A DNA stretch of 64,000 bases from the NCBI GenBank assembly GCA_037143575.1, contig JBAWYM010000001.1, forward strand, positions 8,327 to 72,326, in the 5' to 3' direction. Under the pieces are notes generated by a model that saw only the letters and a list, made by a program, of their open reading frames with translations, was not told the origin of the DNA and made no database searches. The DNA is from Candidatus Peregrinibacteria bacterium. GTDB taxonomy: Bacteria; Patescibacteriota; Gracilibacteria; Peribacterales; Peribacteraceae. Position 1 is the first letter of the stretch, and every line of letters begins with the position of its first letter. Below are positions 5,658 through 29,996 of the stretch, piece by piece. The translations under genes were made by a program, and so were the position numbers.

Positions 5658-5685
5658 TTGACTTCCATCCATCCAAGTATATATT
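5658..5685 (+). promoter_or_regulatory. Sigma70-like promoter TTGACT-N16-TATATT
   Basis: Hexamers and spacing read directly from the sequence. Faces the Met-run mini-ORFs. Confidence 0.5.
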
Positions 5686-5718
5686 CCGACCGTGATCCAC
5701 CTCTCCTCCCTCGCCGCA

Positions 5719-5763
5719 ATGCAAATGATGATGCGCTCAATGCGAGGGCAGGTTGCTGCGTAG
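5719..5763 (+). CDS. Candidate leader peptide MQMMMRSMRGQVAA
   Basis: 14 codons, 5 of them Met. Embedded in alternating complementary 7-mers (CCCTCGC 5708, GCGAGGG 5742, CCCTCGC 5788, GCGAGG 5801). Confidence 0.35.
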   Translation: MQMMMRSMRGQVAA

Positions 5764-5787
5764 AAATAGATCAGCACCTGAAGTACC

Positions 5788-5813
5788 CCCTCGCACCGAA
5801 GCGAGGTTTTTTT
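5788..5813 (+). terminator. Intrinsic terminator (CCTCGC-accgaa-GCGAGG + T7)
   Basis: 6-bp GC-rich stem followed by seven T. No plus-strand gene lies upstream other than the mini-ORF. Confidence 0.6.
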
Positions 5814-5853
5814 GAAACGTACCCGCGGTACATCTCTACTCCCACTTCTCTCC

Positions 5854-5946
5854 ATGATCATCTCTTCCGCCTCCACCGTCCCCACCTCCATCATAATGAT
5901 GATGGCGATGATGATGACCCCTCTGCGAGGCGGGTGTGAGACGTAA
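5854..5946 (+). CDS. Candidate leader peptide MIISSASTVPTSIIMMMAMMMTPLRGGCET
   Basis: 30 codons with an MMMAMMM run. Followed by the hairpin and T-run at 5963-6001. Confidence 0.3.
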   Translation: MIISSASTVPTSIIMMMAMMMTPLRGGCET

Positions 5947-5962
5947 GGAAAAATATCTCACT

Positions 5963-6001
5963 TCAACCCCAACCCTCGCAGAAATGCGGGGGTTGATTTT
6001 T
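5963..6001 (+). terminator. Terminator-like hairpin (TCAACCCC...GGGGTTGA + T5)
   Basis: 8-bp outer stem with an inner CGCA-GAAA-TGCG hairpin, then ATTTTTA. Confidence 0.45.
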
Positions 6002-6027
6002 ATATCGTTCATTTCCGCCCTTCCCCA

Positions 6028-6115: not shown

Positions 6116-7135
6116 ATGACCATGACAACCTTTGAATCAACACCGGCAGAAGATACGGAATTTAAGCTCCGTAAACCCACGCGCACACTGTTCTACTCCG
6201 ATACCGTCGGCGGACAAACACTGCAACCGAACGGTGAACTCGAGCATCCATTCAACAGGCCATGCCTCGAGGAAATTCTCACGCAAGTCGTTCGCTCTCC
6301 AACCTTCGGAGGCAATCCGGAACGAGCCCATACCTTCGGAAGAGAAGGCTCCTTCGCACATCTCGTTGATGAGGCGCGCAGACTGCATAGAGAGCCCGCC
6401 ATCGTCGGACCGCAAGACAAAACGTTTTTCGCCCTCAATGGAGCACCAAGACTGACCACCAAAGCGGGATCCGGAAACGGCAATACCTTTTACTTCGGCA
6501 GACTGCACCCCAATTTGGAAGTCGTCGGTCCGGCGCATTGCTTTGCACGTGTACGACATCTTATTGAGGATGGACGAGTGCAATTATCCGAAGTGGATGG
6601 TGAAGGAGTGATCTGGCCCGAAAAATGTCAGGATCGTTCTTCTCATTTGCTGAGGTTGTCACAAGGAAGAGATCGGCTCAGGGGTCAGGGCAGAGCCGTT
6701 GGAGCTGAAGTGGTTCCAAAGATCCCTGAATGGACGGTGGGAGCGGTGGACAATTTCGGAGGATTCAAACTCTCCGTCGCAGATACTTGGAAATTCGTGG
6801 AGAGCGTTCGCAAAGAGGAAAGCCGTGGAAAAGATGGCCTGAAAACGATTGGCCTGGAGATAGGTGGCGTTCGTCAGGAAGTGGCTTCGGTACTCGATGC
6901 TGCTGCCCTTACAGATCTCCATCAACGCATCAAAGGTGATCCGACACGACTCGTGCTCTACCTGGACCACACGCGACCTCAGAAAGATGCAGAAGGAAAT
7001 CTCTTCGGTGCTCCAACGCTTTATTGGCCGTGGGCAGATCGATCCACTCCGAAGGAGAAATTGCTGACGCATTCTCCCTACGGAAAATTCGGCGCCAACC
7101 CGCACATCGAAGGTCTCCCCGTTAATATTTCCTGA
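6116..7135 (+). CDS. Hypothetical protein (339 aa)
   Basis: Long uninterrupted ORF. G-rich first codon positions and an ordinary soluble-protein composition. The antisense ORFs are compositional shadows (see rejected list). Confidence 0.6.
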   Translation: MTMTTFESTPAEDTEFKLRKPTRTLFYSDTVGGQTLQPNGELEHPFNRPCLEEILTQVVRSPTFGGNPERAHTFGREGSFAHLVDEARRLHREPAIVGPQDKTFFALNGAPRLTTKAGSGNGNTFYFGRLHPNLEVVGPAHCFARVRHLIEDGRVQLSEVDGEGVIWPEKCQDRSSHLLRLSQGRDRLRGQGRAVGAEVVPKIPEWTVGAVDNFGGFKLSVADTWKFVESVRKEESRGKDGLKTIGLEIGGVRQEVASVLDAAALTDLHQRIKGDPTRLVLYLDHTRPQKDAEGNLFGAPTLYWPWADRSTPKEKLLTHSPYGKFGANPHIEGLPVNIS

Positions 7136-8414: not shown

Positions 8415-9074
8415 ATGGCCGATCCGACACCCCCCACGCCTCCCCGTCCCGGTGATCCCGTCCCCGCAGGAGGGCTCGATCCCACGCAGGTTTTCGGTAC
8501 GCCACCGCCACCGCCTCCACAGGCCGGTGCCGCTGGTGCTGCCGGAGCCAAGCCTGTAGCCGGTGCTGCTGGTGCGCAGGATGATGGTGCGATTCCACAG
8601 GACATGGGTCCGCCACCGCCTCCGGTGGGGACGATCGCGACCAAGGAAATGGGATTCGATGATGAGGACATCCGTATTCTCGGCGAAATCGGCAATTACC
8701 GCTTCGGGAGCATTACGGTTTCACTGACCAATGACAATATCATCGTCCCCGCTCATACCGAGACGAAGATGGACGAGCAGCTTTTCTTGACCTTGCTCCG
8801 CGGTTCCATCTCCCTCACACGCGACGAGAAGTGGCGCATCATCCAGGCCATTCCCAAGCTCAGTCAGTTCCAGATCGATGAGCTCCAGAAGATCCTGGAG
8901 GAGGAGAAGAAGAAGTTCTCCGAGCTCTCGCCCAAGCACCTCCTTCAGCTTCAGAAGTTGGAACAGAAGCACGCCGCCGACTGGACCGATCTGCAGGCTG
9001 TCACCGTGCAGACGGCCGCCAAGAGCGACGAAGCAGCGAAGGCAGAGGAGATCAGGAAACAACTGGGGCTATAA
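8415..9074 (+). CDS. Hypothetical protein with Pro/Ala/Gly-rich N-terminus and coiled-coil-like C-terminus
   Basis: 219-aa ORF. The low-complexity PPPPPP/AGAAGA N-terminal part is followed by a charged helical region. Confidence 0.55.
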   Translation: MADPTPPTPPRPGDPVPAGGLDPTQVFGTPPPPPPQAGAAGAAGAKPVAGAAGAQDDGAIPQDMGPPPPPVGTIATKEMGFDDEDIRILGEIGNYRFGSITVSLTNDNIIVPAHTETKMDEQLFLTLLRGSISLTRDEKWRIIQAIPKLSQFQIDELQKILEEEKKKFSELSPKHLLQLQKLEQKHAADWTDLQAVTVQTAAKSDEAAKAEEIRKQLGL

Positions 9075-9201: not shown

Positions 9202-9780
9202 TTAGATAACGTTCATCCGATACACCACAAACACTCCAATTCCAATGAGAGTGAAAAGTAGGCCGCTCTTCCAACTCCCCTCAATCTTCTTCCACATGCC
9301 GCTGAGGAGCAGAAAAAGCCACGCAGCGAACGTGAAACTGAGGACGAGGGGAGAGAGGAAGAGTCCCTCCAGGAAGGGAATATCAAAAGGGAGAAGCCGA
9401 AACGATGTGTACGACCCGATGGCGTAGACCAGGAAGTACCACGCGAGGAGCCAGCCCGCATAGAGCCGAAGCGTATCGATCAGCGGAAAATAGGTGGATG
9501 ACGCGGTTTCTGCAGGTGCTGGTGAAGAAGAATTGGGCGCAAATGCATCTGGCGGTTCTGCAACAGCCGAAAAAAGCTTCTCTGCTTTCTCGGGTGTCAG
9601 CTGCTCTCCGGTCACTTCCCAGGGAATCGCATTCTCCGCCATGGTTGTTTCGTGAATTTCCTGAACCGTAAGGGATAATTCCTTGAGAGCATCGCGGGCA
9701 TTCTCGAGGCTTTCGGCAGTTACCGTCCCTTCCTTCATCTTTCCATCACTGTCCTGGGCGGTATAGGAGAATTGGGGCAT
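9202..9780 (-). CDS. Membrane protein with GspF/PilC-like N-terminal motif
   Basis: The N-terminus FSYTAQDSDGKMKEGTVTAESLENARDALKELSLTVQEI resembles the start of type II secretion / type IV pilus platform proteins. The C-terminus has 4 hydrophobic helices. Confidence 0.5.
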   Translation of the reverse strand: MPQFSYTAQDSDGKMKEGTVTAESLENARDALKELSLTVQEIHETTMAENAIPWEVTGEQLTPEKAEKLFSAVAEPPDAFAPNSSSPAPAETASSTYFPLIDTLRLYAGWLLAWYFLVYAIGSYTSFRLLPFDIPFLEGLFLSPLVLSFTFAAWLFLLLSGMWKKIEGSWKSGLLFTLIGIGVFVVYRMNVI

Positions 9781-9837
9781 GGGAGGATCATAGCATATTG
9801 AGCTGCGACAATTGTACCTGTGAAGAATGAAGTGCTG

Positions 9838-15022: not shown

Positions 15023-17041
15023 ATGCATTCCTTTCGACCTCTCTCGCTGGCATTCCTCTTCTGCCTCTTGGGCAGCGCATTTGGATTCATCCTCCCGAAT
15101 ACATTTCTTCGAGCCGCTGTCACGACTCCAACATTCACTGAATGCATTGGCAAAACGTACCCATCGCCCGGTTGTCCTCTCAAAGGCATCGGCACCGATA
15201 TCATCAACTCGTTGGGGCGACCAGTTCATTGCGGAGACGCCATTGTACAATCGAACGAAGGGGAGGAATGCGATCTTGGTCGATTTAATGGTATCAGCAC
15301 GTGCTCAGATGCCTGCACTCTTCTCTACTGTGGCGATACGGTGGTGACACCTTTCCTCGGCGAGGAATGTGAGCCGACCTTCAATGAAGTGTATGCCATT
15401 GATCCGAAGACCGGACAGATTGGAACACAGCGCACATTTACAATCCCCACCTGTGGAAAATCCTGTAGTCCTCCATTGTGTGATGTGACAGGTAATTGCT
15501 CTGGGGGGTGTGAATGGATATTTCTCGCAACCTGTGCGGGATCAGGAAGCAGCACTTCCCAAAATTCGCCACTGGAGGTCGTATCGATTGCGCAATCCTC
15601 TCTTTTCTCATCTCAGGCTTCCGAGTTGATGCACACAGTTGCGCCCACAGTGCGCTGTGGCGATGGAGTTCTTCAGGATAGCGAAGAGTGTGATGATGGA
15701 ATGAGGAATTCTGACCTTCTCCCCAACGCATGCCGGACGAACTGTCGGAAATCCTACTGTGGAGATGCGACGACTGACCACGGGGAACAGTGTGATACTG
15801 GGGCACGGAACGGACAACTTTGCATATCATCCTACGGGCAAAGCTGCACGTATTGTGCAAGTGATTGTCGCATGCTAGCAATCCAGGGTCCACGCTGTGG
15901 TGATGGAACAGTCGATGAAAGCGAGCAATGTGATGATGCTGCACGCAATGGACAGATCTGTACGCCGACCTACGGTCAGAGCTGCACGTATTGCATCAGT
16001 GATTGCCGCACAAAGACAGTCCAAGGTCCACGCTGCGGAGACGGAACAGTCGATCAGAGCGAGCAGTGTGATGACGGTGCACGCAATGGACAGGTCTGTA
16101 CTGCTTCATACGGCCAGAATTGCTCATACTGTGCAAATGATTGCCGTGAGCTCACATTCCAAGGTCCGCGCTGCGGTGATGGAGCGGTGGATAAAAGCGA
16201 ACAGTGCGATGACGGGGCTCGCAACGGACAGATCTGCAGCGCGTCCTATAATCAGACGTGTGACTACTGCACGAATGAATGCGCCTTAACAACCATTCAT
16301 GGCCCTCATTGCGGTGATGCAACGATCAACCTCGGGGAACAATGTGATGATGGCCCAAGAAATTCTGACGTCATCCAGAATAGCTGTCGTACCAATTGCA
16401 CTCTGCCACACTGTGGTGATGAAATCATCGACAAAGGAGAGCAGTGCGATAATGGAGTTCGCAACGGACAGCGGTGTACAGTTTCCGATGGACAAAGCTG
16501 CGATTTCTGTTCACTAGAATGTTCGACCGTTACCCTCAGCGGACCGCGCTGCGGAGACGGCATACTTCAATCCTCAGAACAGTGTGACGATGGTCCAAGA
16601 AATTCGGACGTGATGTCCAATGCCTGCAGAACGACCTGCACTCTCCCCCGGTGTGGAGACGACATTCTCGACAAAAGTGAATCCTGCGATCAGGGAGCTG
16701 CGAATTCTGATGTCGCACCCAATACCTGCCGACTCGACTGCTCACTTCCTCACTGCGGAGATTTCGTCATCGACAGAGGAGAGGAATGCGATGGGGGCAA
16801 AGATTGCACCTCGCAATGTCGCACAATCGGCTTCTTCGCAGCCCATGCAGGGACCATTGCATCAGGCGGGATCGCCGCGATCTTCCTCTCACTCATTCTG
16901 AGCTTCCTCTTCCGCAGAAACATCCTGTCTACACTGGGATCAGAAATGAATGGGCACACTATTGTTCCCTCCATCGATGATGTGCCACTCGATACCATCG
17001 AAATGCCGTGGCAGAAGTTCGGAGGAAAGCCGGGGAAGTAA
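15023..17041 (+). CDS. Secreted, C-terminally anchored cysteine-rich repeat protein (CGDG..D.GEQCDDG.RN repeats)
   Basis: Signal peptide, then about 10-12 repeats of 34 or 46 aa, each starting CGD[GA]x[IV]D and containing EQCDDG. Resembles the Myxococcus-type cysteine-rich repeat. C-terminal transmembrane helix. Confidence 0.8.
   Translation: MHSFRPLSLAFLFCLLGSAFGFILPNTFLRAAVTTPTFTECIGKTYPSPGCPLKGIGTDIINSLGRPVHCGDAIVQSNEGEECDLGRFNGISTCSDACTLLYCGDTVVTPFLGEECEPTFNEVYAIDPKTGQIGTQRTFTIPTCGKSCSPPLCDVTGNCSGGCEWIFLATCAGSGSSTSQNSPLEVVSIAQSSLFSSQASELMHTVAPTVRCGDGVLQDSEECDDGMRNSDLLPNACRTNCRKSYCGDATTDHGEQCDTGARNGQLCISSYGQSCTYCASDCRMLAIQGPRCGDGTVDESEQCDDAARNGQICTPTYGQSCTYCISDCRTKTVQGPRCGDGTVDQSEQCDDGARNGQVCTASYGQNCSYCANDCRELTFQGPRCGDGAVDKSEQCDDGARNGQICSASYNQTCDYCTNECALTTIHGPHCGDATINLGEQCDDGPRNSDVIQNSCRTNCTLPHCGDEIIDKGEQCDNGVRNGQRCTVSDGQSCDFCSLECSTVTLSGPRCGDGILQSSEQCDDGPRNSDVMSNACRTTCTLPRCGDDILDKSESCDQGAANSDVAPNTCRLDCSLPHCGDFVIDRGEECDGGKDCTSQCRTIGFFAAHAGTIASGGIAAIFLSLILSFLFRRNILSTLGSEMNGHTIVPSIDDVPLDTIEMPWQKFGGKPGK
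15652..16830 (+). repeat. Tandem coding repeats (about 102 and 138 bp units) within the Cys-rich gene
   Basis: Consecutive units share long identical DNA stretches (for example ggtccacgctg[tc]gg[ta]ga[tc]gg). Confidence 0.75.
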
Positions 17042-24429: not shown

Positions 24430-25221
24430 CTACACTCCGAAAGATGTGCGAATCTTTTCCAGCTTTTCTCTGTATTTTCCTTCAATAGCAGTACCAGTAT
24501 TAAAGATCCTATCGATGGCAAATATCTGATTCGATATCCAGTTGCACATCAATCGCACCGTGCCAGATCGAGCTGCTGCATCCATTGATTGGAAATAGTC
24601 TTTCTGTTGCAGGAAATATAATGCCGCGATCATTTTTTCAATCCGTCGGATCTTGGCATTAGCTTCGATAAGCTCATGGTTGTCCTCCAGGTTTTGACCT
24701 TCCTCTGTATGATCGATATCCTCTTCCTGTTCCTCTGGAGAAATGAACAAATACGGTTGTGCATTCACAGAATCAATATCCACTGCGGAGTACAGGGCGT
24801 CCAGAAACATAATTGCATGTTCCGCCTTCATGTAACGTCTCCATTCCGTTGATTGTATTTCATGCTGTGCCTGTGCCAACCTTAAATCAGGTAACATCGC
24901 GACATATCTCTGTGGGTCTGCGACATTTCCAGTTTCCAAAGCACAATCGATATCTTTTTGCAGTCCCCTCAATAGATCATTGATGCTTTCTGCAGGTACT
25001 GAGAGACAGGAAAGAACTTGCTTTCTTGTTTCATTGTAGGGCCTTTGCAGAGTTAAGTCGGCACCGTATCCCCCTTCATTCAGATACTGAAAATCGGCAA
25101 AAACGCGAAGGTGCTCTGCCTCTTTCATCAGCTGTAGTGCCTTTTCAGTATCCATCACATTCGCTGCGTCACGAGCTTCTCGGAGTAACTCAAAAGTTTT
25201 ATCCTGAATAATGTTATTCAT
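24430..25221 (-). CDS. Hypothetical protein (263 aa)
   Basis: Clean ORF, visibly A/T-richer than the flanks. No family recognised. Confidence 0.55.
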   Translation of the reverse strand: MNNIIQDKTFELLREARDAANVMDTEKALQLMKEAEHLRVFADFQYLNEGGYGADLTLQRPYNETRKQVLSCLSVPAESINDLLRGLQKDIDCALETGNVADPQRYVAMLPDLRLAQAQHEIQSTEWRRYMKAEHAIMFLDALYSAVDIDSVNAQPYLFISPEEQEEDIDHTEEGQNLEDNHELIEANAKIRRIEKMIAALYFLQQKDYFQSMDAAARSGTVRLMCNWISNQIFAIDRIFNTGTAIEGKYREKLEKIRTSFGV

Positions 25222-25590: not shown

Positions 25591-25637
25591 GTGCCACGTG
25601 CGCCGCAGGCGTTATACGTGGTCGGGGCGAAAGGACT
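25591..25637 (-). repeat. Duplicate of tRNA-Pro 3' end (19 nt) plus trailer hairpin
   Basis: 47 nt that closely match 25716-25762 (a few mismatches). Beyond it the tRNA sequence is replaced by CCTTCGGCTCGCTC..GCTCAGGATAAAC. Confidence 0.8.
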
Positions 25638-25717
25638 TCCTTCGGCTCGCTCCGCTCGCTCAGGATAAACTTCTCGTCCTTTTTTCAGAGAGAAAATCTG
25701 CAAAATGATCTGGCTGT

Positions 25718-25746
25718 GCCACGTGCGGCGCAGCCGTTTTACGTGG
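25718..25746 (-). repeat. Conserved tRNA 3'-trailer hairpin (copy at tRNA-Pro)
   Basis: GCCACGTGCGGCGCAGCCGTTTTACGTGG, overlapping the CCA end of tRNA-Pro. Confidence 0.8.
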
Positions 25747-25820
25747 TCGGGGCGAAAGGACTCGAACCTTCGACCTTACGGTCCCGAACCGTACGCTCTA
25801 GCCAACTGAGCTACGCCCCG
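25744..25820 (-). tRNA. tRNA-Pro (anticodon CGG), CCA encoded
   Basis: Hand-folded: acceptor CGGGGCG/CGCCCCG, D arm GCTC-AGTTGGCTA-GAGC, anticodon loop TTCGGGA, T arm GAAGG-TTCGAGT-CCTTT. Confidence 0.9.
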
Positions 25821-25956
25821 ATGGTGTTCATAACTGGATCTAGGATTCATCGGTGCGAAGACGGGAGCAACACTCCGATAGCCGCGACATCCTAGCAGAG
25901 CCCGGCCCGAGGGGAAGCAAATATCCGGCTCCCTTTCCATCTCACGAATCTCATTC

Positions 25957-25984
25957 TTGACTACACGCAAACCAGTGCTAGATT
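25957..25984 (+). promoter_or_regulatory. Sigma70-like promoter TTGACT-N16-TAGATT
   Basis: Read directly from the sequence. 11 nt upstream of the leader-peptide ATG. Confidence 0.45.
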
Positions 25985-25995
25985 TAATGCAGTCC

Positions 25996-26052
25996 ATGAC
26001 CACCCGGTCCACGATCATCAGCATTATCATTACCACCCCCACCACGGCGTGA
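25996..26052 (+). CDS. Candidate leader peptide MTTRSTIISIIITTPTTA
   Basis: 18 codons, of which 7 are Thr and 5 are Ile. The stop overlaps a segment that can pair with the 5' arm of the downstream terminator. Confidence 0.45.
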   Translation: MTTRSTIISIIITTPTTA

Positions 26053-26087
26053 GGAGATAACTGTTGAACAATTCCTTCCCTTTCTCT

Positions 26088-26108
26088 CCCGCGCCAAGCG
26101 GGTTTTTT
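26088..26108 (+). terminator. Terminator/attenuator hairpin CCCGC-gccaa-GCGGG + T6
   Basis: 5-bp G/C stem and six T, ending 3 nt before ATG 26111. Confidence 0.5.
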
Positions 26109-26110
26109 GT

Positions 26111-26725
26111 ATGAGCCACTCTCCAACCCTTTCTTCAGAACAACCCTTCTCTTCAGCTACCACAGCATCAGACAATACTGATCCGCAACTCGAGCTCGTC
26201 CCAGAAGAGCACGCCGAAACGAACGGTCGCCATAATGGCAAATCATCCTTTGACAGAATCCGACAAATTGGAGATACCGACTGGAGAGGATGTATGACAC
26301 TCATTATCAGCGCAGGCAATGTGGCTGAATTTTCCGCCATTCGAAGAGCAATTGATGAAATCATCAGTGATGAATGCGGGCTCATACACCAGCTTATACA
26401 TGACTCACGCAGAAATCATGCATCTTCCGCGCCATCCATCGTTATCACGATGCCCTATCACCATCAAACACCAAGCAATCCCGACTATAGAATGATGACC
26501 GTGAAATTCGGTCCAAATGGATACAATTTTCAGAGGGCCGAAGCCGGTAGAGATTACGAGGTTGTCGGGAGAAATGACCAGGAATTCGACGAGGAATCGA
26601 CAGGTGAATTCATCAAACATGCCATAAGAATGATCGCGCAGCGCGTTGACCAGACGACTGCTACTACAGCAGCAGCCACGTCAGATACAGCGATGTATCA
26701 GCAGGAATTCTTCGCGAAATCGTGA
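26111..26725 (+). CDS. Hypothetical protein (204 aa)
   Basis: Clean ORF. Shares a local motif (E.S..R.A.D...S.ECGL) with the ORF at 59685. Confidence 0.55.
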   Translation: MSHSPTLSSEQPFSSATTASDNTDPQLELVPEEHAETNGRHNGKSSFDRIRQIGDTDWRGCMTLIISAGNVAEFSAIRRAIDEIISDECGLIHQLIHDSRRNHASSAPSIVITMPYHHQTPSNPDYRMMTVKFGPNGYNFQRAEAGRDYEVVGRNDQEFDEESTGEFIKHAIRMIAQRVDQTTATTAAATSDTAMYQQEFFAKS

Positions 26726-26916
26726 ATACTTAAAACATATTATTTATAGTATGTAAAATTTAGCTTCTAATATCAACGGATTTCGAAACTGATTGTACAA
26801 ATTATTTGTACGATAAACCGTATCCATTTCCTTGCGCTTAGAAGCAGCTATTTTTGTTTATGATAAGCCTAAATGTCATAATTCATGACCATCAATAACG
26901 CCATCGAACACAAAAG

Positions 26917-26947
26917 TTGACACTCTTCATCTGGACAACAATATCAC
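26917..26947 (+). promoter_or_regulatory. Promoter TTGACA-N17-19-(A)ATATCAC
   Basis: Perfect -35 hexamer and a moderate -10. Faces an ORF-less region that ends in a terminator. Confidence 0.45.
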
Positions 26948-26952
26948 GGTGA

Positions 26953-27232
26953 GTACACTCCCGCGCTTCTATGAGTATTCATACCATGATAGGCGTGAAG
27001 CAACATCTTCATCTTGCTTCCACCCCGCTCGTGCTCACGCACGCGCTGCTCATCACCTTCCTTTCTCTCGTGATGGTGATGAGTCTCCCGGTCCTCGGCT
27101 AACGAGGCGGGTCAGGGTGGAAGACTGCAGCCCCGATTGGGTGCCAAACATACAAACGCACATTCAAACGGGTTTCACCGCCTCTCAGGCTTACCAGCCA
27201 GCAGAGGACAGCAGGATTCTTGAATCCTTTTT
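26953..27232 (+). ncRNA. Candidate structured ncRNA (~280 nt) with SRP-RNA helix-8-like motif
   Basis: Bounded by a promoter and an intrinsic terminator. Contains several 7-9-bp hairpins. Positions 27107-27134, CGGGUCAGG-GU-GGAAG-AC-UGCAGCCCCG, parallel the E. coli 4.5S GGUCAGGUCCGGAAGGAAGCAGCC. Confidence 0.4.
27212..27232 (+). terminator. Intrinsic terminator AGGATTC-tt-GAATCCT + T6
   Basis: 7-bp stem with a T-run on the plus strand only. Confidence 0.7.
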
Positions 27233-27244
27233 TGGGAATAGAGA

Positions 27245-27751
27245 TCACTTGCTGCGCTTCAGTTCCTTCAGCTGAGCGGTCGCTACCGTCAAACCCTCTG
27301 CAGAGTTGTCAGAATCTTTCTTCAGTGTGATGATCACATCAGTATACGCCGTCAAATCCTTGGTGGATTCGAAGGTGAGGGAATGACGGACATCGCCGCC
27401 AATGCTCTTCACGTGGCCCACAGAGACCTTTTCGCCTGTCGCAGGATTCTTGAGCCAACCCTCGTAGAACGTCCCTTCCTTCTCCATGATGATATTCATC
27501 TGAAGAGTATGCATGAACTGTCCTTTCTCGAATCGATGAGACTTGGCGAGCCCATTGGCAGGAGTTTCCTTGGTTCCGGTGATGGCGCCGTACGAGAACC
27601 ACACCTCTTTCCCGAAGCGCTCATCCACAATTGCGCCATTGGGACCCTGCAGGCCAATGGCAGGAGGCTTGCCGGCATTATTCTTGCCACCGCAGGCAGT
27701 GAGGAGGGCGAATGAGAAGAGGAGCGGAAGAATGATGTGGAGCTTTTTCAT
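27245..27751 (-). CDS. Lipoprotein with anti-sigma-K (RskA) C-terminal-like domain
   Basis: MKKLHIILPLLFSFALLTAC lipobox. FYEGWLKNP..GEKVSVGHV......LTF.......YTDVIITLK resembles the RskA extracytoplasmic domain pattern. Confidence 0.55.
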   Translation of the reverse strand: MKKLHIILPLLFSFALLTACGGKNNAGKPPAIGLQGPNGAIVDERFGKEVWFSYGAITGTKETPANGLAKSHRFEKGQFMHTLQMNIIMEKEGTFYEGWLKNPATGEKVSVGHVKSIGGDVRHSLTFESTKDLTAYTDVIITLKKDSDNSAEGLTVATAQLKELKRSK

Positions 27752-27893: not shown

Positions 27894-29996
27894 TTACCAA
27901 AACAGCCCCGGCACCCTCGCGCCCATCTTCTCCCGCTCCGTCTTGGCAATCCTCGCAACCGCAGCAGCCATCACCTGGTACTTCGGCTCATCTGCCGGAT
28001 ACCACTCGCTGAGGATGGTTGTGATCTTCAGGAATTCATCGGTACTAGGAGAAACTGCCACGTAATGGGCATTACGACCGATGGCAGCGAAGAAAAGACG
28101 CAGAACACCATCGAAATCTGCCTTTCGTGTATCCATCTCCGTTTTACCAGCAGAATTGGCAAGTACTTGAACCAATCGGCGCATCGTTCCCAAGTCCGTC
28201 ATCCGTCCATTGCGGTACGCAAGTACGGCATGGGTGTAAGCCGCTTTTTGATCATTTTGAATCAGATCGATATCTGTCAGGAGAGCGAATGCCCGGGCAT
28301 CACTCTGATTCATGTGCGCGGCAACAGTCGCAACCTTCAAGGCTTCGGTGTAGCGCTTCTGTTGATAGAGCAGCTGCGCCTCAGTGAGATACAGATCCCG
28401 CGGATACCACTCACCCCGAGACTTCTCAAACCAGCGGATGGCAGTGGGAATGTCATTGCGCGCTAATGCACGGCGTCCGAGGGAGGAAGTAACAATATAC
28501 GGAACTTCCCGTAAAGCGATGAATAGTAATAATGTCGCAAGAAGAAGCTCTGATATCCGAACACATTTGTTGATCGTCATAGAAGAATTCCCCTGGGCTT
28601 TCGCTGGAACGAGGAACCCTAGGAAGAGCATGAACGGCAGAATAATACCGACGAACTGGAGATTATAGTCCACGAGATTGTGGGCGAGGACGCCCGTCAC
28701 CGCGGTGAAGAGGAATAAAGCAAGGGGCAGAGCAGCCTCGGTACCACGAGCTTCTCCGGTGAAATTCGGACCATGGGCTTCCGAGCCCATGAATCTCCGT
28801 TCCAACCGCAACCACCGTGTCTTGTCAGTAGAAGACCACAGATCTGACAACCGATTCCTCGTCTGAGAAAGAATCTCTCGAACATGAATATGGGGAACGA
28901 GAATCAGACATAGGACAATAAACAGCAACCCCGCCGCTGGCCAGCCGCTGTCCATCGCCGCTTTGAGGAACACATTATGTGCATGATCCGAAGTCGCAAG
29001 CACACCCTGCGCAGCCCGAGGTTGGACGAAGCGAAAGCTCCCCAGCCCCCACCCAAGGATCGGCTTCTCATTGGCGAAAGCAAAAGCCTGCTTCCAGAAT
29101 TGCATCCGCTCGGTGATCGATGTCGTCCCTTCGTCTGCCAAAAAGAGCGCCTTCTCGGCGAGCGACTGCACGGGATACTGCGTCGCCCTCCACACATTCG
29201 CCGCGCCATACACCGAGACCGCTATGGCCATACTCGTCACGATCACGACGATCCCGCGCCGAAGTCCTCGGTTATACACGAATCCCCACACCAGAAGCAC
29301 AGCACACTGCCCAACGAACGCAATGATGGAAGCACGGGAGTAGCTCAAAAGAAGGGTGCCGAAGACGACGCCGAGAGGAGCAGAGCGAAATATCAGACGT
29401 AAGAATTGCCGAAACTTGCCTCCATTGCCCGGATTCTTCAGAAGCAAATACAGCAGAACCGGCCAACTGAGGAGCACGAGCTCCGCCCAGGCATTGGGCC
29501 AGTAATCTCCCTGGAAGCGGAAATCGAAGAACGTCCCGACGAAGCGATTGGCGGGCTGCAGGGCATAGACCGCGATGCCTGCCAGAGAAGCAATCAATAC
29601 AGCCACGGAGAACACGCGCAAAATCATCGTCCGGACCCGCGCCTCCAGAGGAAGACGCGCAGCCCAGAGCAGCAGCAGGGAAAGTGATGCAGTGCGAAGC
29701 AGCTCATCGAGTCCGTAGTTGCGAACCGAAGAAAAGTACCAACTGAGCCCCGTCCATGTGACATACAGCATGATCGTTCCCCAGAGCAGCACACTCACCC
29801 GCCGCTCCCCTTCCCGGGGATAGAGGAACGCAATGAAGACCACGAGCCACATGACGAAGACGAGCGCCCACGTACTCTCCAACGTCTTGCCGCCCTTCCA
29901 GAGGACAGAGAGGAAGACGAGCATGAGGAGTGAAAAGGGCGCAAGCCACTGGAAAAACTTTCCGGTGCGGGAAGTAGGACGTGAAGAAGAATTCAT
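27894..29996 (-). CDS. O-antigen-ligase-like (Wzy_C) polytopic membrane protein with C-terminal TPR-like repeats
   Basis: About 12 hydrophobic helices with a YSRASIIAF-type loop. The C-terminal ~220 aa is helical-repeat-like (YQQKRYTEALK...). Confidence 0.6.
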   Translation of the reverse strand: MNSSSRPTSRTGKFFQWLAPFSLLMLVFLSVLWKGGKTLESTWALVFVMWLVVFIAFLYPREGERRVSVLLWGTIMLYVTWTGLSWYFSSVRNYGLDELLRTASLSLLLLWAARLPLEARVRTMILRVFSVAVLIASLAGIAVYALQPANRFVGTFFDFRFQGDYWPNAWAELVLLSWPVLLYLLLKNPGNGGKFRQFLRLIFRSAPLGVVFGTLLLSYSRASIIAFVGQCAVLLVWGFVYNRGLRRGIVVIVTSMAIAVSVYGAANVWRATQYPVQSLAEKALFLADEGTTSITERMQFWKQAFAFANEKPILGWGLGSFRFVQPRAAQGVLATSDHAHNVFLKAAMDSGWPAAGLLFIVLCLILVPHIHVREILSQTRNRLSDLWSSTDKTRWLRLERRFMGSEAHGPNFTGEARGTEAALPLALFLFTAVTGVLAHNLVDYNLQFVGIILPFMLFLGFLVPAKAQGNSSMTINKCVRISELLLATLLLFIALREVPYIVTSSLGRRALARNDIPTAIRWFEKSRGEWYPRDLYLTEAQLLYQQKRYTEALKVATVAAHMNQSDARAFALLTDIDLIQNDQKAAYTHAVLAYRNGRMTDLGTMRRLVQVLANSAGKTEMDTRKADFDGVLRLFFAAIGRNAHYVAVSPSTDEFLKITTILSEWYPADEPKYQVMAAAVARIAKTEREKMGARVPGLFW

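Follow-up and report, generated by a model that had tools for sequence, protein, structure and literature searches.

What does an amino acid-sensing leader regulate when the gene behind it resembles no enzyme of the pathway concerned? This question is raised by a short element in a 64,000-nt stretch of DNA from Candidatus Peregrinibacteria bacterium (assembly GCA_037143575.1, contig JBAWYM010000001.1, positions 8,327-72,326 of the forward strand; the whole stretch is called the window below), in which a promoter, an 18-codon open reading frame (ORF) rich in threonine and isoleucine, and an intrinsic terminator lie in front of a gene encoding 204 amino acids. RecG, TrpE and Wzy homologues place the uncultivated organism in Candidatus Peribacteria (Peregrinibacteria), within the Candidate Phyla Radiation (CPR). 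A preliminary description of the sequence likened the leader peptide to those of thrL and the ilv operons of E. coli, and asked whether the function of the downstream gene is tied to threonine or isoleucine supply. The evidence presented here makes it probable that the element is a ribosome-mediated attenuator that senses the supply of isoleucyl-tRNA, that it is homologous to switches standing before citramalate synthase (cimA) or threonine ammonia-lyase (ilvA) genes in related genomes, and that it now stands before a lineage-specific orphan ORF (ORFan).

Anatomy and folding of the leader

The TTGACT-N16-TAGATT promoter, the ORF with its seven Thr and five Ile residues, and the CCCGC/GCGGG hairpin with six Ts lie where the preliminary description had placed them (Table 1). 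A TG at 25976-77 precedes the -10 hexamer in the consensus scan. Transcription is predicted to start at about 25991-92, which would leave the leader a 5′ untranslated region (UTR) of just 4-5 nt; a second in-frame ATG, at 25987, probably precedes the transcription start, because it lies just 2 nt downstream of the -10 box. The regulatory Ile codons of the window leader are codons 7, 8, 10, 11 and 12 (26014-26031). The terminator sits between the leader ORF and the downstream gene, and its T-run, ending 3 nt before ATG 26111 as had been noted, is followed by GT and then by that ATG.

Table 1 Positions of the isoleucine leader, its surroundings and the other candidate attenuators in the window (MFE, minimum free energy)
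Feature	Position	Strand	Details
Sigma-70-type promoter	25957-25984	+	-35 TTGACT 25957-62, 16-nt spacer, -10 TAGATT 25979-84; consensus scan
Leader-peptide ORF	25996-26052	+	ATG 25996, TGA 26050-52; 18 codons, MTTRSTIISIIITTPTTA
Region 1	26018-26039	+	5′ strand of 1:2 anti-antiterminator hairpin; overlaps Ile codons; MFE fold
Region 2	26046-26067	+	Pairs with region 1 or, via 26046-26057 (GGCG-UGA-GGAGA), with region 3
Region 3	26085-26095	+	UCUCCCGCGCC; 3′ strand of antiterminator; overlaps 5′ arm of terminator
Intrinsic terminator	26088-26108	+	CCCGC / loop GCCAA / GCGGG (26088-26102), T6 26103-08; hairpin -9.7 kcal/mol
ORFan cargo	26111-26725	+	204 aa from ATG 26111, or 143 aa from ATG 26294
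Lineage-specific replacement segment	26114-26900	+	787 nt; cimA (1.7 kb) or ilvA (1.3 kb) here in relatives
tRNA-Pro(CGG)	25744-25820	-	Conserved neighbour of the leader
orf43	26971-27102	+	43-aa hydrophobic ORF, MSIHTMIGVKQHLHLASTPLVLTHALLITFLSLVMVMSLPVLG; marks far boundary of swapped segment
Trp leader	40028-39870	-	Before trpE (ATG 39837); promoter TTGCAT (40028), 17-nt spacer, TACCAT (40005-40000)
Tandem Met-codon leaders	5659-6004	+	Upstream of ORF 6116-7135; both leaders and terminators within 5692-6004

RNA folding, which had been proposed as a check on the leader, gave three competing helices with terminator and antiterminator exclusive. The hairpin of regions 1 and 2 (26018-26067) has a folding energy of -13.3 kcal/mol and completes the classical four-region layout, in which the 1:2, 2:3 and 3:4 pairings exclude one another. 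In the antiterminator, GGCGUG.AGGAGA pairs with region 3 through 6+5 bp; the helix reaches -17.0 kcal/mol as a hairpin with a 27-nt loop (26044-26097) and -19.2 kcal/mol as an isolated duplex of the window copy. The preliminary description had recognized this pairing, though as 4+5 bp around an internal loop; the helix is stronger than that and is interrupted by a single bulged A. The UGA stop of the leader is embedded in region 2.

In a ribosome-mask scan of the window RNA, ribosomes with codons 5-13 in the A site gave the antiterminator, and these codons coincide with the Ile run. The terminator formed with codons 14-18 or the stop in that site, and likewise with codons 1-4, and the unmasked RNA folds as the 1:2 hairpin plus the terminator.

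In the mechanism that we propose, transcription would begin about 4-5 nt upstream of the leader AUG, and the leader would be translated. With the leader untranslated, or with a ribosome at the UGA in region 2, region 2 would be unavailable, the CCCGC/GCGGG-U6 hairpin would form and the transcript would end at about 26108. Under isoleucine starvation, a ribosome stalled with an Ile codon (codons 5-13) in its A site would cover region 1 and allow region 2 to pair with region 3; this pairing would sequester the 5′ arm of the terminator, and RNA polymerase would read through.

Conservation of the leader in related genomes

Relatives were retrieved by anchoring on the O-antigen-ligase-like wzy gene at 27894-29996, 1.8 kb from the element. 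Four related lineages (L178, L180, L184/185 and L187) were obtained, whose proteins are 69-72% (RecG), 86-88% (GroEL), 40-50% (Wzy) and ~40% (Germane) identical to those of the window. Their common gene order is wzy, rskA-like, orf43, a gene termed gene X, leader, tRNA-Pro, Germane, RecG. The mini-ORF, which the preliminary description had proposed to look for in related genomes and whose absence there would have told against a leader, was found in all four lineages as an 18-codon homologue ahead of genes of the isoleucine pathway.

The leader peptides are MKRSIIIRSIIITRAPRR in L178, MVLRAIISSMIITPATQA in L180, MVRSSIISSIIIISAPTA in L184/185 and MAHRAIISSIIITQAQTA in L187, and the ORF is exactly 18 codons long in all five lineages, the window included. 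Codons 7, 11 and 12 specify Ile in every leader, and codons 6 and 10 do so in four of the five. Several of these Ile codons (6, 7, 11 and 12) switch between ATC and ATT without altering the residue, and the remaining codons vary freely; the relatives' leaders contain 4-6 Ile and 1-2 Thr. This conservation argues for codon-level selection on the leader frame and its regulatory codons.

The signals around the ORF are likewise kept. The relatives' promoters read TTGACA, a 16-17 nt spacer and TACAAT or TACACT, with the leader ATG 10-12 nt past the -10 box. In all five lineages the UGA stop lies within GGCG-UGA-GGA and region 2 contains GGCGTGAGGA. The relatives' terminators have the form CCCGCGCC-NN-GCGGG-T6-GTA; the stem is invariant in the five lineages and the loop differs (AA, CA or CG). 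Over a 115-nt alignment of the five leaders mean column identity is 83%, and the flanking proteins are merely 40-72% identical. Every relative has an equivalent of the 1:2 hairpin (-15 to -23 kcal/mol), and the 2:3 duplex ranges from -16.0 to -21.7 kcal/mol across the five. Helix registers and bulges vary among lineages, the 2:3 helix differing in the window, L180 and L178; in the mask scan all five leaders share the codon-position response of the window.

These features define a Peribacteria Ile-leader family, for which a model (R1) was built: GGCG-UGA-GGA ... CCCGCGCC-N2-GCGGG-U6 with an 18-codon ORF and the tRNA-Pro-adjacent synteny (rskA/orf43 to Germane/RecG). The window copy scores 106 bits with R1, a score obtained by construction since that copy belongs to the training set, and no copy beyond the training loci was found in 777 kb. 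Loci anchored on RecG in GTDB (40 Peribacteria, ≤68% identity) had no synteny around RecG and no leader copy, and a metagenome scan with the Germane-domain neighbour found no relatives. A contig look-up with a neighbouring 263-aa protein returned only the near-identical L001 and L002, which are uninformative on conservation. Two other candidates were rejected: a degenerate II.IIITT.TT pattern searched in metagenomes gave, among the matches listed, only (ATH)n(ACN)n microsatellites, and a Thr-rich candidate leader in L013 is the C-terminus of a 684-aa ORF.

The comparison also bears on whether a low-complexity, ACC/ATC-rich frame could simply have come to lie, by chance, between sequences that resemble a promoter and a terminator hairpin. 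Consensus scans do yield false positives, and the folding z-score of the whole leader is modest. In four lineages, however, the element occupies a syntenic position and keeps its frame length and Ile codons, and R1 scores of 106-126 bits occur only at these loci in the 777 kb, although the model was trained on them. Shuffle and genome controls point the same way: none of 2000 dinucleotide shuffles attained the energy of the 2:3 duplex (-20.4 kcal/mol in the shuffle control), and 1.6% of genomic 85-mers did. The Thr+Ile fraction of the leader ORF ranks at the top of 324 ATG mini-ORFs in the window, and no further Thr/Ile-rich mini-ORF (≥14 codons) with a following terminator was found in 730 kb of Peribacteria DNA. 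Chance is effectively refuted, and we regard it as vanishingly improbable.

The regulated gene in relatives

The gene behind the leader in the relatives points to the amino acid concerned. Gene X matches the citramalate synthase family TIGR00977 in L178 (468 bits), L184 (442 bits) and L187 (413 bits), for which the curated cut-off is 450, and the threonine ammonia-lyase IlvA family NF006390 in L180 (378 bits; curated cut-off 421); these are by far its best-matching families. Citramalate synthase and IlvA provide alternative routes to 2-oxobutanoate, the committed precursor of isoleucine, and an Ile-codon leader before 2-oxobutanoate-forming enzymes is what the classical model of attenuation predicts. 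In the relatives, the controlled gene thus supplies the sensed amino acid (cimA or ilvA); in the window the cargo is an ORFan. The ancestral switch would have governed one 2-oxobutanoate gene for isoleucine synthesis, encoding citramalate synthase in three lineages and threonine ammonia-lyase in one. The proposal in the preliminary description that ribosome position selects between antiterminator and terminator is supported by the mask folding, and decisively by the conservation of the leader in four lineages before isoleucine-pathway genes.

The likeness to ilv leaders noted at the outset is borne out, and that to thrL is not: Thr is not conserved, and there is no Thr_leader match. Because Ile is the conserved residue, the relatives have just 1-2 Thr, and the responsive codons of the window copy are 5-13, the element is better described as ilv-like than thrL-like, and conservation supports Ile, not Thr, as the residue of the regulatory codons. 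The Thr richness is peculiar to the window genome. It could be argued from this that the seven Thr codons, too, have a regulatory role, making a thrL-like sensor of threonine plus isoleucine that was retuned in the window lineage together with its new cargo. The excess over the relatives' 1-2 Thr includes four new Thr at otherwise variable positions (rough binomial P ~1e-3, with a 6% Thr background), and Thr6 and Thr13 fall within the antiterminating codons. Five of the seven Thr codons (2, 3, 14, 16 and 17), on the other hand, lie where a stalled ribosome still permits the terminator, the codons lie in ACCACC(C) repeats with a possible origin by slippage, and Thr is conserved in no relative. 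Rfam gave no leader match and no Thr_leader at the gathering threshold over the whole window, and over 25800-26300 at E≤10 it gave tRNAs and noise only, with no Thr_leader (RF00506). A dual sensor consequently seems unlikely to us.

Several observations weigh against the attenuator reading or its details. The terminator stem is short (5 bp), and the MFE z-score of the leader as a whole is only -1.47. In untranslated nascent window RNA the 2:3 helix (-17.0 kcal/mol) is slightly favoured over 1:2 (-13.3 kcal/mol) at equilibrium, so that default termination must rely on folding kinetics. An RNAalifold consensus of the five sequences has no pair changed on both sides, and five sequences are too few for covariation statistics; because there are no two-sided changes, structural support rests on conservation, energies and register shifts rather than on classical covariation. 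The enzymes of L184, L187 and L180 score under the NCBIfam curated cut-offs. Finally, the coding signal over the first 122 codons of the ORFan is weak, so that the switch in the window could be a fossil.

Replacement of the regulated gene in the window

Comparison of the window with the relatives by blastn gave three aligned islands only: tRNA-Pro (25744-25823), the leader (26005-26113) and the orf43 region (26901-27104). A tblastn search of 25901-27400 with CimA and IlvA detected no decayed cimA or ilvA. Because the 26114-26900 segment has no counterpart in relatives and no trace of either gene, we conclude that a clean replacement of the enzyme gene took place, running from where the terminator ends to the orf43 promoter. 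By this comparison the ancestral cargo was a 2-oxobutanoate enzyme (CimA or IlvA) and the ORFan is a lineage-specific replacement, which answers the question about the cargo left by the preliminary description; the gene was swapped for a 787-nt ORFan segment that is now under the intact switch.

The boundary marker orf43 has a promoter-like site, TGGACA-N16-TACACT, at 26932-59 in a promoter scan. It is 72-74% identical to its counterparts in relatives at the amino acid level and 80-84% at the DNA level, far above the neighbouring proteins, and has no family match.

The preliminary description held that the downstream gene is not a recognizable thr or ilv enzyme, and this agrees with our searches: Pfam, NCBIfam, PHROGs and PADLOC gave no match, and the PDB gave two chance-level matches only (E 0.35 and 0.62). 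The sole homologue (5.8e9 clusters; 1.84e9 representatives, full HMMER) is the same protein, called by JGI as 143 aa from ATG 26294. Exact-sequence contig look-up with the 204-aa and 143-aa products returned nothing. ATG 26294 is preceded by GGAGAGG. ATG 26111 belongs to a conserved TTTTTTGTATG motif and is probably fortuitous rather than the true start, because TTTTTTGTATG is also present in L180 and L187, where its ATG is not a gene start; the 3-nt distance between T-run and ATG, to which the preliminary description drew attention, is accordingly probably not a meaningful geometry. The proposed structure prediction of the 204-aa protein was run (AlphaFold2, no alignment), and its mean confidence (predicted local distance difference test, pLDDT, 44.5) was too poor for a fold search. 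A bias in Thr or Ile content might have been expected by analogy with the Met-poor cargo of the Met leader described below, but the protein is neither depleted of nor enriched in these residues.

These properties can be read in two ways. The switch may be a fossil, an ilv-type attenuator by descent that performs no useful regulation, its biosynthetic gene having been deleted, 26111-26725 being non-functional and the leader not yet having decayed. The replacement segment has no homologue anywhere searched; its G+C content is 41-49%, against ~53% for the genome; codons 1-122 of the ORFan do not rise above the 5th percentile of real genes in coding score (26111-26293: codon-usage score -0.06, the 3.5th percentile of real coding windows); and its structure prediction is unconfident. 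Ca. Peribacter riflensis, the described member of the class, is reported to lack most amino acid biosynthesis (PMC4736985), which would suit such a loss; for the same reason, starvation sensors are of some interest in relatives that keep single pathway steps. Against decay, all functional parts are intact: the promoter, the 18-codon frame, the stop in region 2 and the 2:3 and 3:4 helices. The 1:2 helix of the window has its own register, UCAGCAUUAUC/GAUAACUGUUGA versus CAGCAGC/GCUGCUG in relatives, an indication that the helix is still under constraint. Over its last 82 codons the ORFan has a normal coding score (+0.29), its frame is intact in an independent assembly (L001), and the 143-aa form was called independently by JGI. 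A fossil switch is conceivable, then, although we lean against it.

The second possibility is that the ORFan, as 143 or 204 aa, is functional, is induced by isoleucine starvation and represents a non-orthologous displacement of CimA/IlvA under a conserved sensor. If so, it would add to the isoleucine or 2-oxobutanoate available to a CPR symbiont, or lower the demand for them, and might do this as a small enzyme of a new kind, as a regulator or through scavenging. This specific proposal is speculative, and we consider it rather improbable; the reading of the leader as an isoleucine attenuator by homology is the one that we favour.

The tRNA-Pro gene next to the leader is divergent from it in the window and in L184/L187, and lies on the same strand in L178/L180. 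A second copy of its 3′ end (GTGGTCGGGGCGAAAGGACT), followed by a hairpin, is present at 25619-25646, ~120 nt past the 3′ end of the real tRNA, and similar copies lie at 10592-10622 in L184 and 11987-12012 in L178; they may be att-like integration scars or a structured element. A 263-aa ORF of low G+C content (24430-25221, minus strand; 44-45%), situated between Germane and tRNA-Pro, matches no family and lacks homologues among the four syntenic relatives; it is a second lineage-specific insertion adjoining the tRNA.

Comparison with known attenuators

Like the enterobacterial leaders ilvL (ilvGMEDA) and ivbL (ilvBN), the Peribacteria element has a short ORF with clustered branched-chain codons, 1:2, 2:3 and 3:4 helices with region 2 blocked by a ribosome at the stop codon, and a terminator before an isoleucine-pathway gene (the case in the Peribacteria relatives). 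Unlike those leaders, to which it has no sequence or Rfam relationship, it conserves Ile codons only, with no Val/Leu run; it has a predicted 5′ UTR of ~4 nt and no Shine-Dalgarno sequence; and its cargo is a single gene (cimA or ilvA, or an ORFan in the window) in a CPR host. The E. coli thrL leader peptide is rich in Thr and Ile. The element resembles thrL (RF00506) in its attenuation logic and Thr/Ile-rich peptide, but it fails the Thr_leader model even at E≤10, neither the window nor the relatives have thrA, thrB or thrC downstream, and its Thr codons are unconserved and mostly outside the responsive codons.

Attenuation of this kind extends beyond Proteobacteria. Corynebacterium ilvBNC has an upstream ORF (uORF) and a three-hairpin attenuator (PMC11857589, PMC10272879), S. 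aureus has a Leu-rich attenuator peptide (PMC5794164), Listeria has an ilv attenuator (PMC5864092), and leader peptides are known from actinobacteria (PMC1262725). The Gram-positive ilv leaders resemble the present element in combining alternative hairpins with a short uORF that carries cognate codons; they differ in being of unrelated sequence, in other phyla and before ilvB-type operons, and none has been reported before citramalate synthase or a lone ilvA. We found no report of leader-peptide attenuation in Patescibacteria/CPR in the searchable literature.

The trpL leader of Sinorhizobium offers a different precedent, as its RNA rnTrpL and peptide peTrpL act in trans, beyond the downstream gene (PMC6614838, PMC7298713), a point of interest for a switch left without its biosynthetic gene. 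By analogy, the Peribacteria unit could be a stand-alone small gene whose ~115-nt terminated RNA or 18-aa peptide acts in trans, the downstream ORF being irrelevant. The unit does have its own promoter and terminator, and is intact after loss of the cargo. The Sinorhizobium system senses Trp, however, and there is no evidence of a trans target for the Peribacteria element, nor any known one. In four relatives the unit directly precedes a functionally matching enzyme gene, as cis attenuation predicts, and the peptide is poorly conserved outside its Ile codons. A role in trans would moreover add to the cis role, not replace it, and as an explanation of the element we find it very unlikely.

The mechanism of the isoleucine attenuator is a textbook one. 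What is new is its occurrence in the CPR, to which classical leader-peptide attenuation would now extend, the predicted translation from very short 5′ ends without a Shine-Dalgarno sequence, and the cargo swap. The sensor is more conserved than its cargo: one Ile switch stands before citramalate synthase, threonine deaminase or an ORFan, with sharp swap boundaries, which makes the cargo swap a clear case, in nature, of a regulatory cassette that behaves as a module.

Translation signals and other leaders in the window

Genes in the window (groEL, purD, purF and others) generally start without a Shine-Dalgarno sequence, so a mini-ORF lacking one is normal here. Many start 4-8 nt past a -10-like hexamer (e.g., 42504, 58356, 56727, 23442(-), 25221(-) and 29996(-)), a sign that leaderless mRNAs may be widespread in this Peribacteria genome. 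The predicted 4-5 nt 5′ UTR of the Ile leader fits this local pattern.

A Trp leader precedes trpE on the minus strand. Its leaderless GTG start (39992), 7 nt past the -10 box, opens MYKYSTSRRLGWWQSLTHFASR with tandem UGG codons, and its stop (39926-24) is enclosed in a helix whose formation competes with that of a strong terminator (39898-39877). The antiterminator pairs CGGUAAGGG with CCCUUCCCUG (-11.7 kcal/mol), against a terminator of the form GCCCUUCCC-UGAGCG-GAGGGGC-U7 (39898-39870). The peptide (RLGWWQ; GWWQ) and the terminator are kept before trpE in L173, L175 and L177, whose TrpE proteins are 75-81% identical; there is no Rfam match to this leader. GTAC-containing repeats, GTACCATTGTACCGGTGTATAAGTAC, at 40010-39975 (minus strand) coincide in part with the trp promoter and with the beginning of the leader, and in L173 a Trp_repressor (PF01371) gene at 9513-9830 lies divergently beside trpE. 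A repressor may therefore act on the trp operon in addition to the attenuator.

Two Met-codon leaders stand in tandem near the start of the window. The first begins with GTG (5692-5763) and encodes MIHLSSLAAMQMMMRSMRGQVAA; the second begins with ATG (5854-5946) and ends in IIMMMAMMMTPLRGGCET. Both have alternative CCCUCGC/GCGAGG helices and a terminator, and they are kept in 12 Peribacteria genomes (L003, L005-L008, L010, L012, L014, L024, L029, L040 and L041). The cargo family includes clear members of the S-adenosylmethionine (SAM) hydroxide adenosyltransferases (SAM hydrolase, PF01887/PF20257); SAM hydrolase frees methionine from SAM. The window copy of this cargo has 2 Met in 339 residues. 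The tandem units look like an undescribed class of Met-sensing attenuator.

Because conserved Trp and Met leaders occur in the same genome as the Ile leader, leader-peptide attenuation appears to be a general, working strategy in this clade. Every leader cargo to which a name can be given supplies the sensed amino acid, and such sensors (Ile, Trp, Met) could label the functions of CPR genes that lack an assignment, as a direct and testable hint in organisms for most of whose genes no function can be assigned.

Two other genes in the window are of separate interest. The C-terminal ~148 residues of the product of ORF 8415-9074 (plus strand) are 65-82% (mostly 70-82%) identical across ~25 Peribacteria loci, with no Pfam family at E≤0.05, and this is a strongly conserved clade-specific protein. 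The ORF at 15023-17041 (plus strand) encodes a 672-aa protein with cysteine-rich CGDG...EQCD repeats and a C-terminal membrane anchor, and resembles the very cysteine-rich surface proteins of Ca. Peribacter riflensis (PMC4736985).

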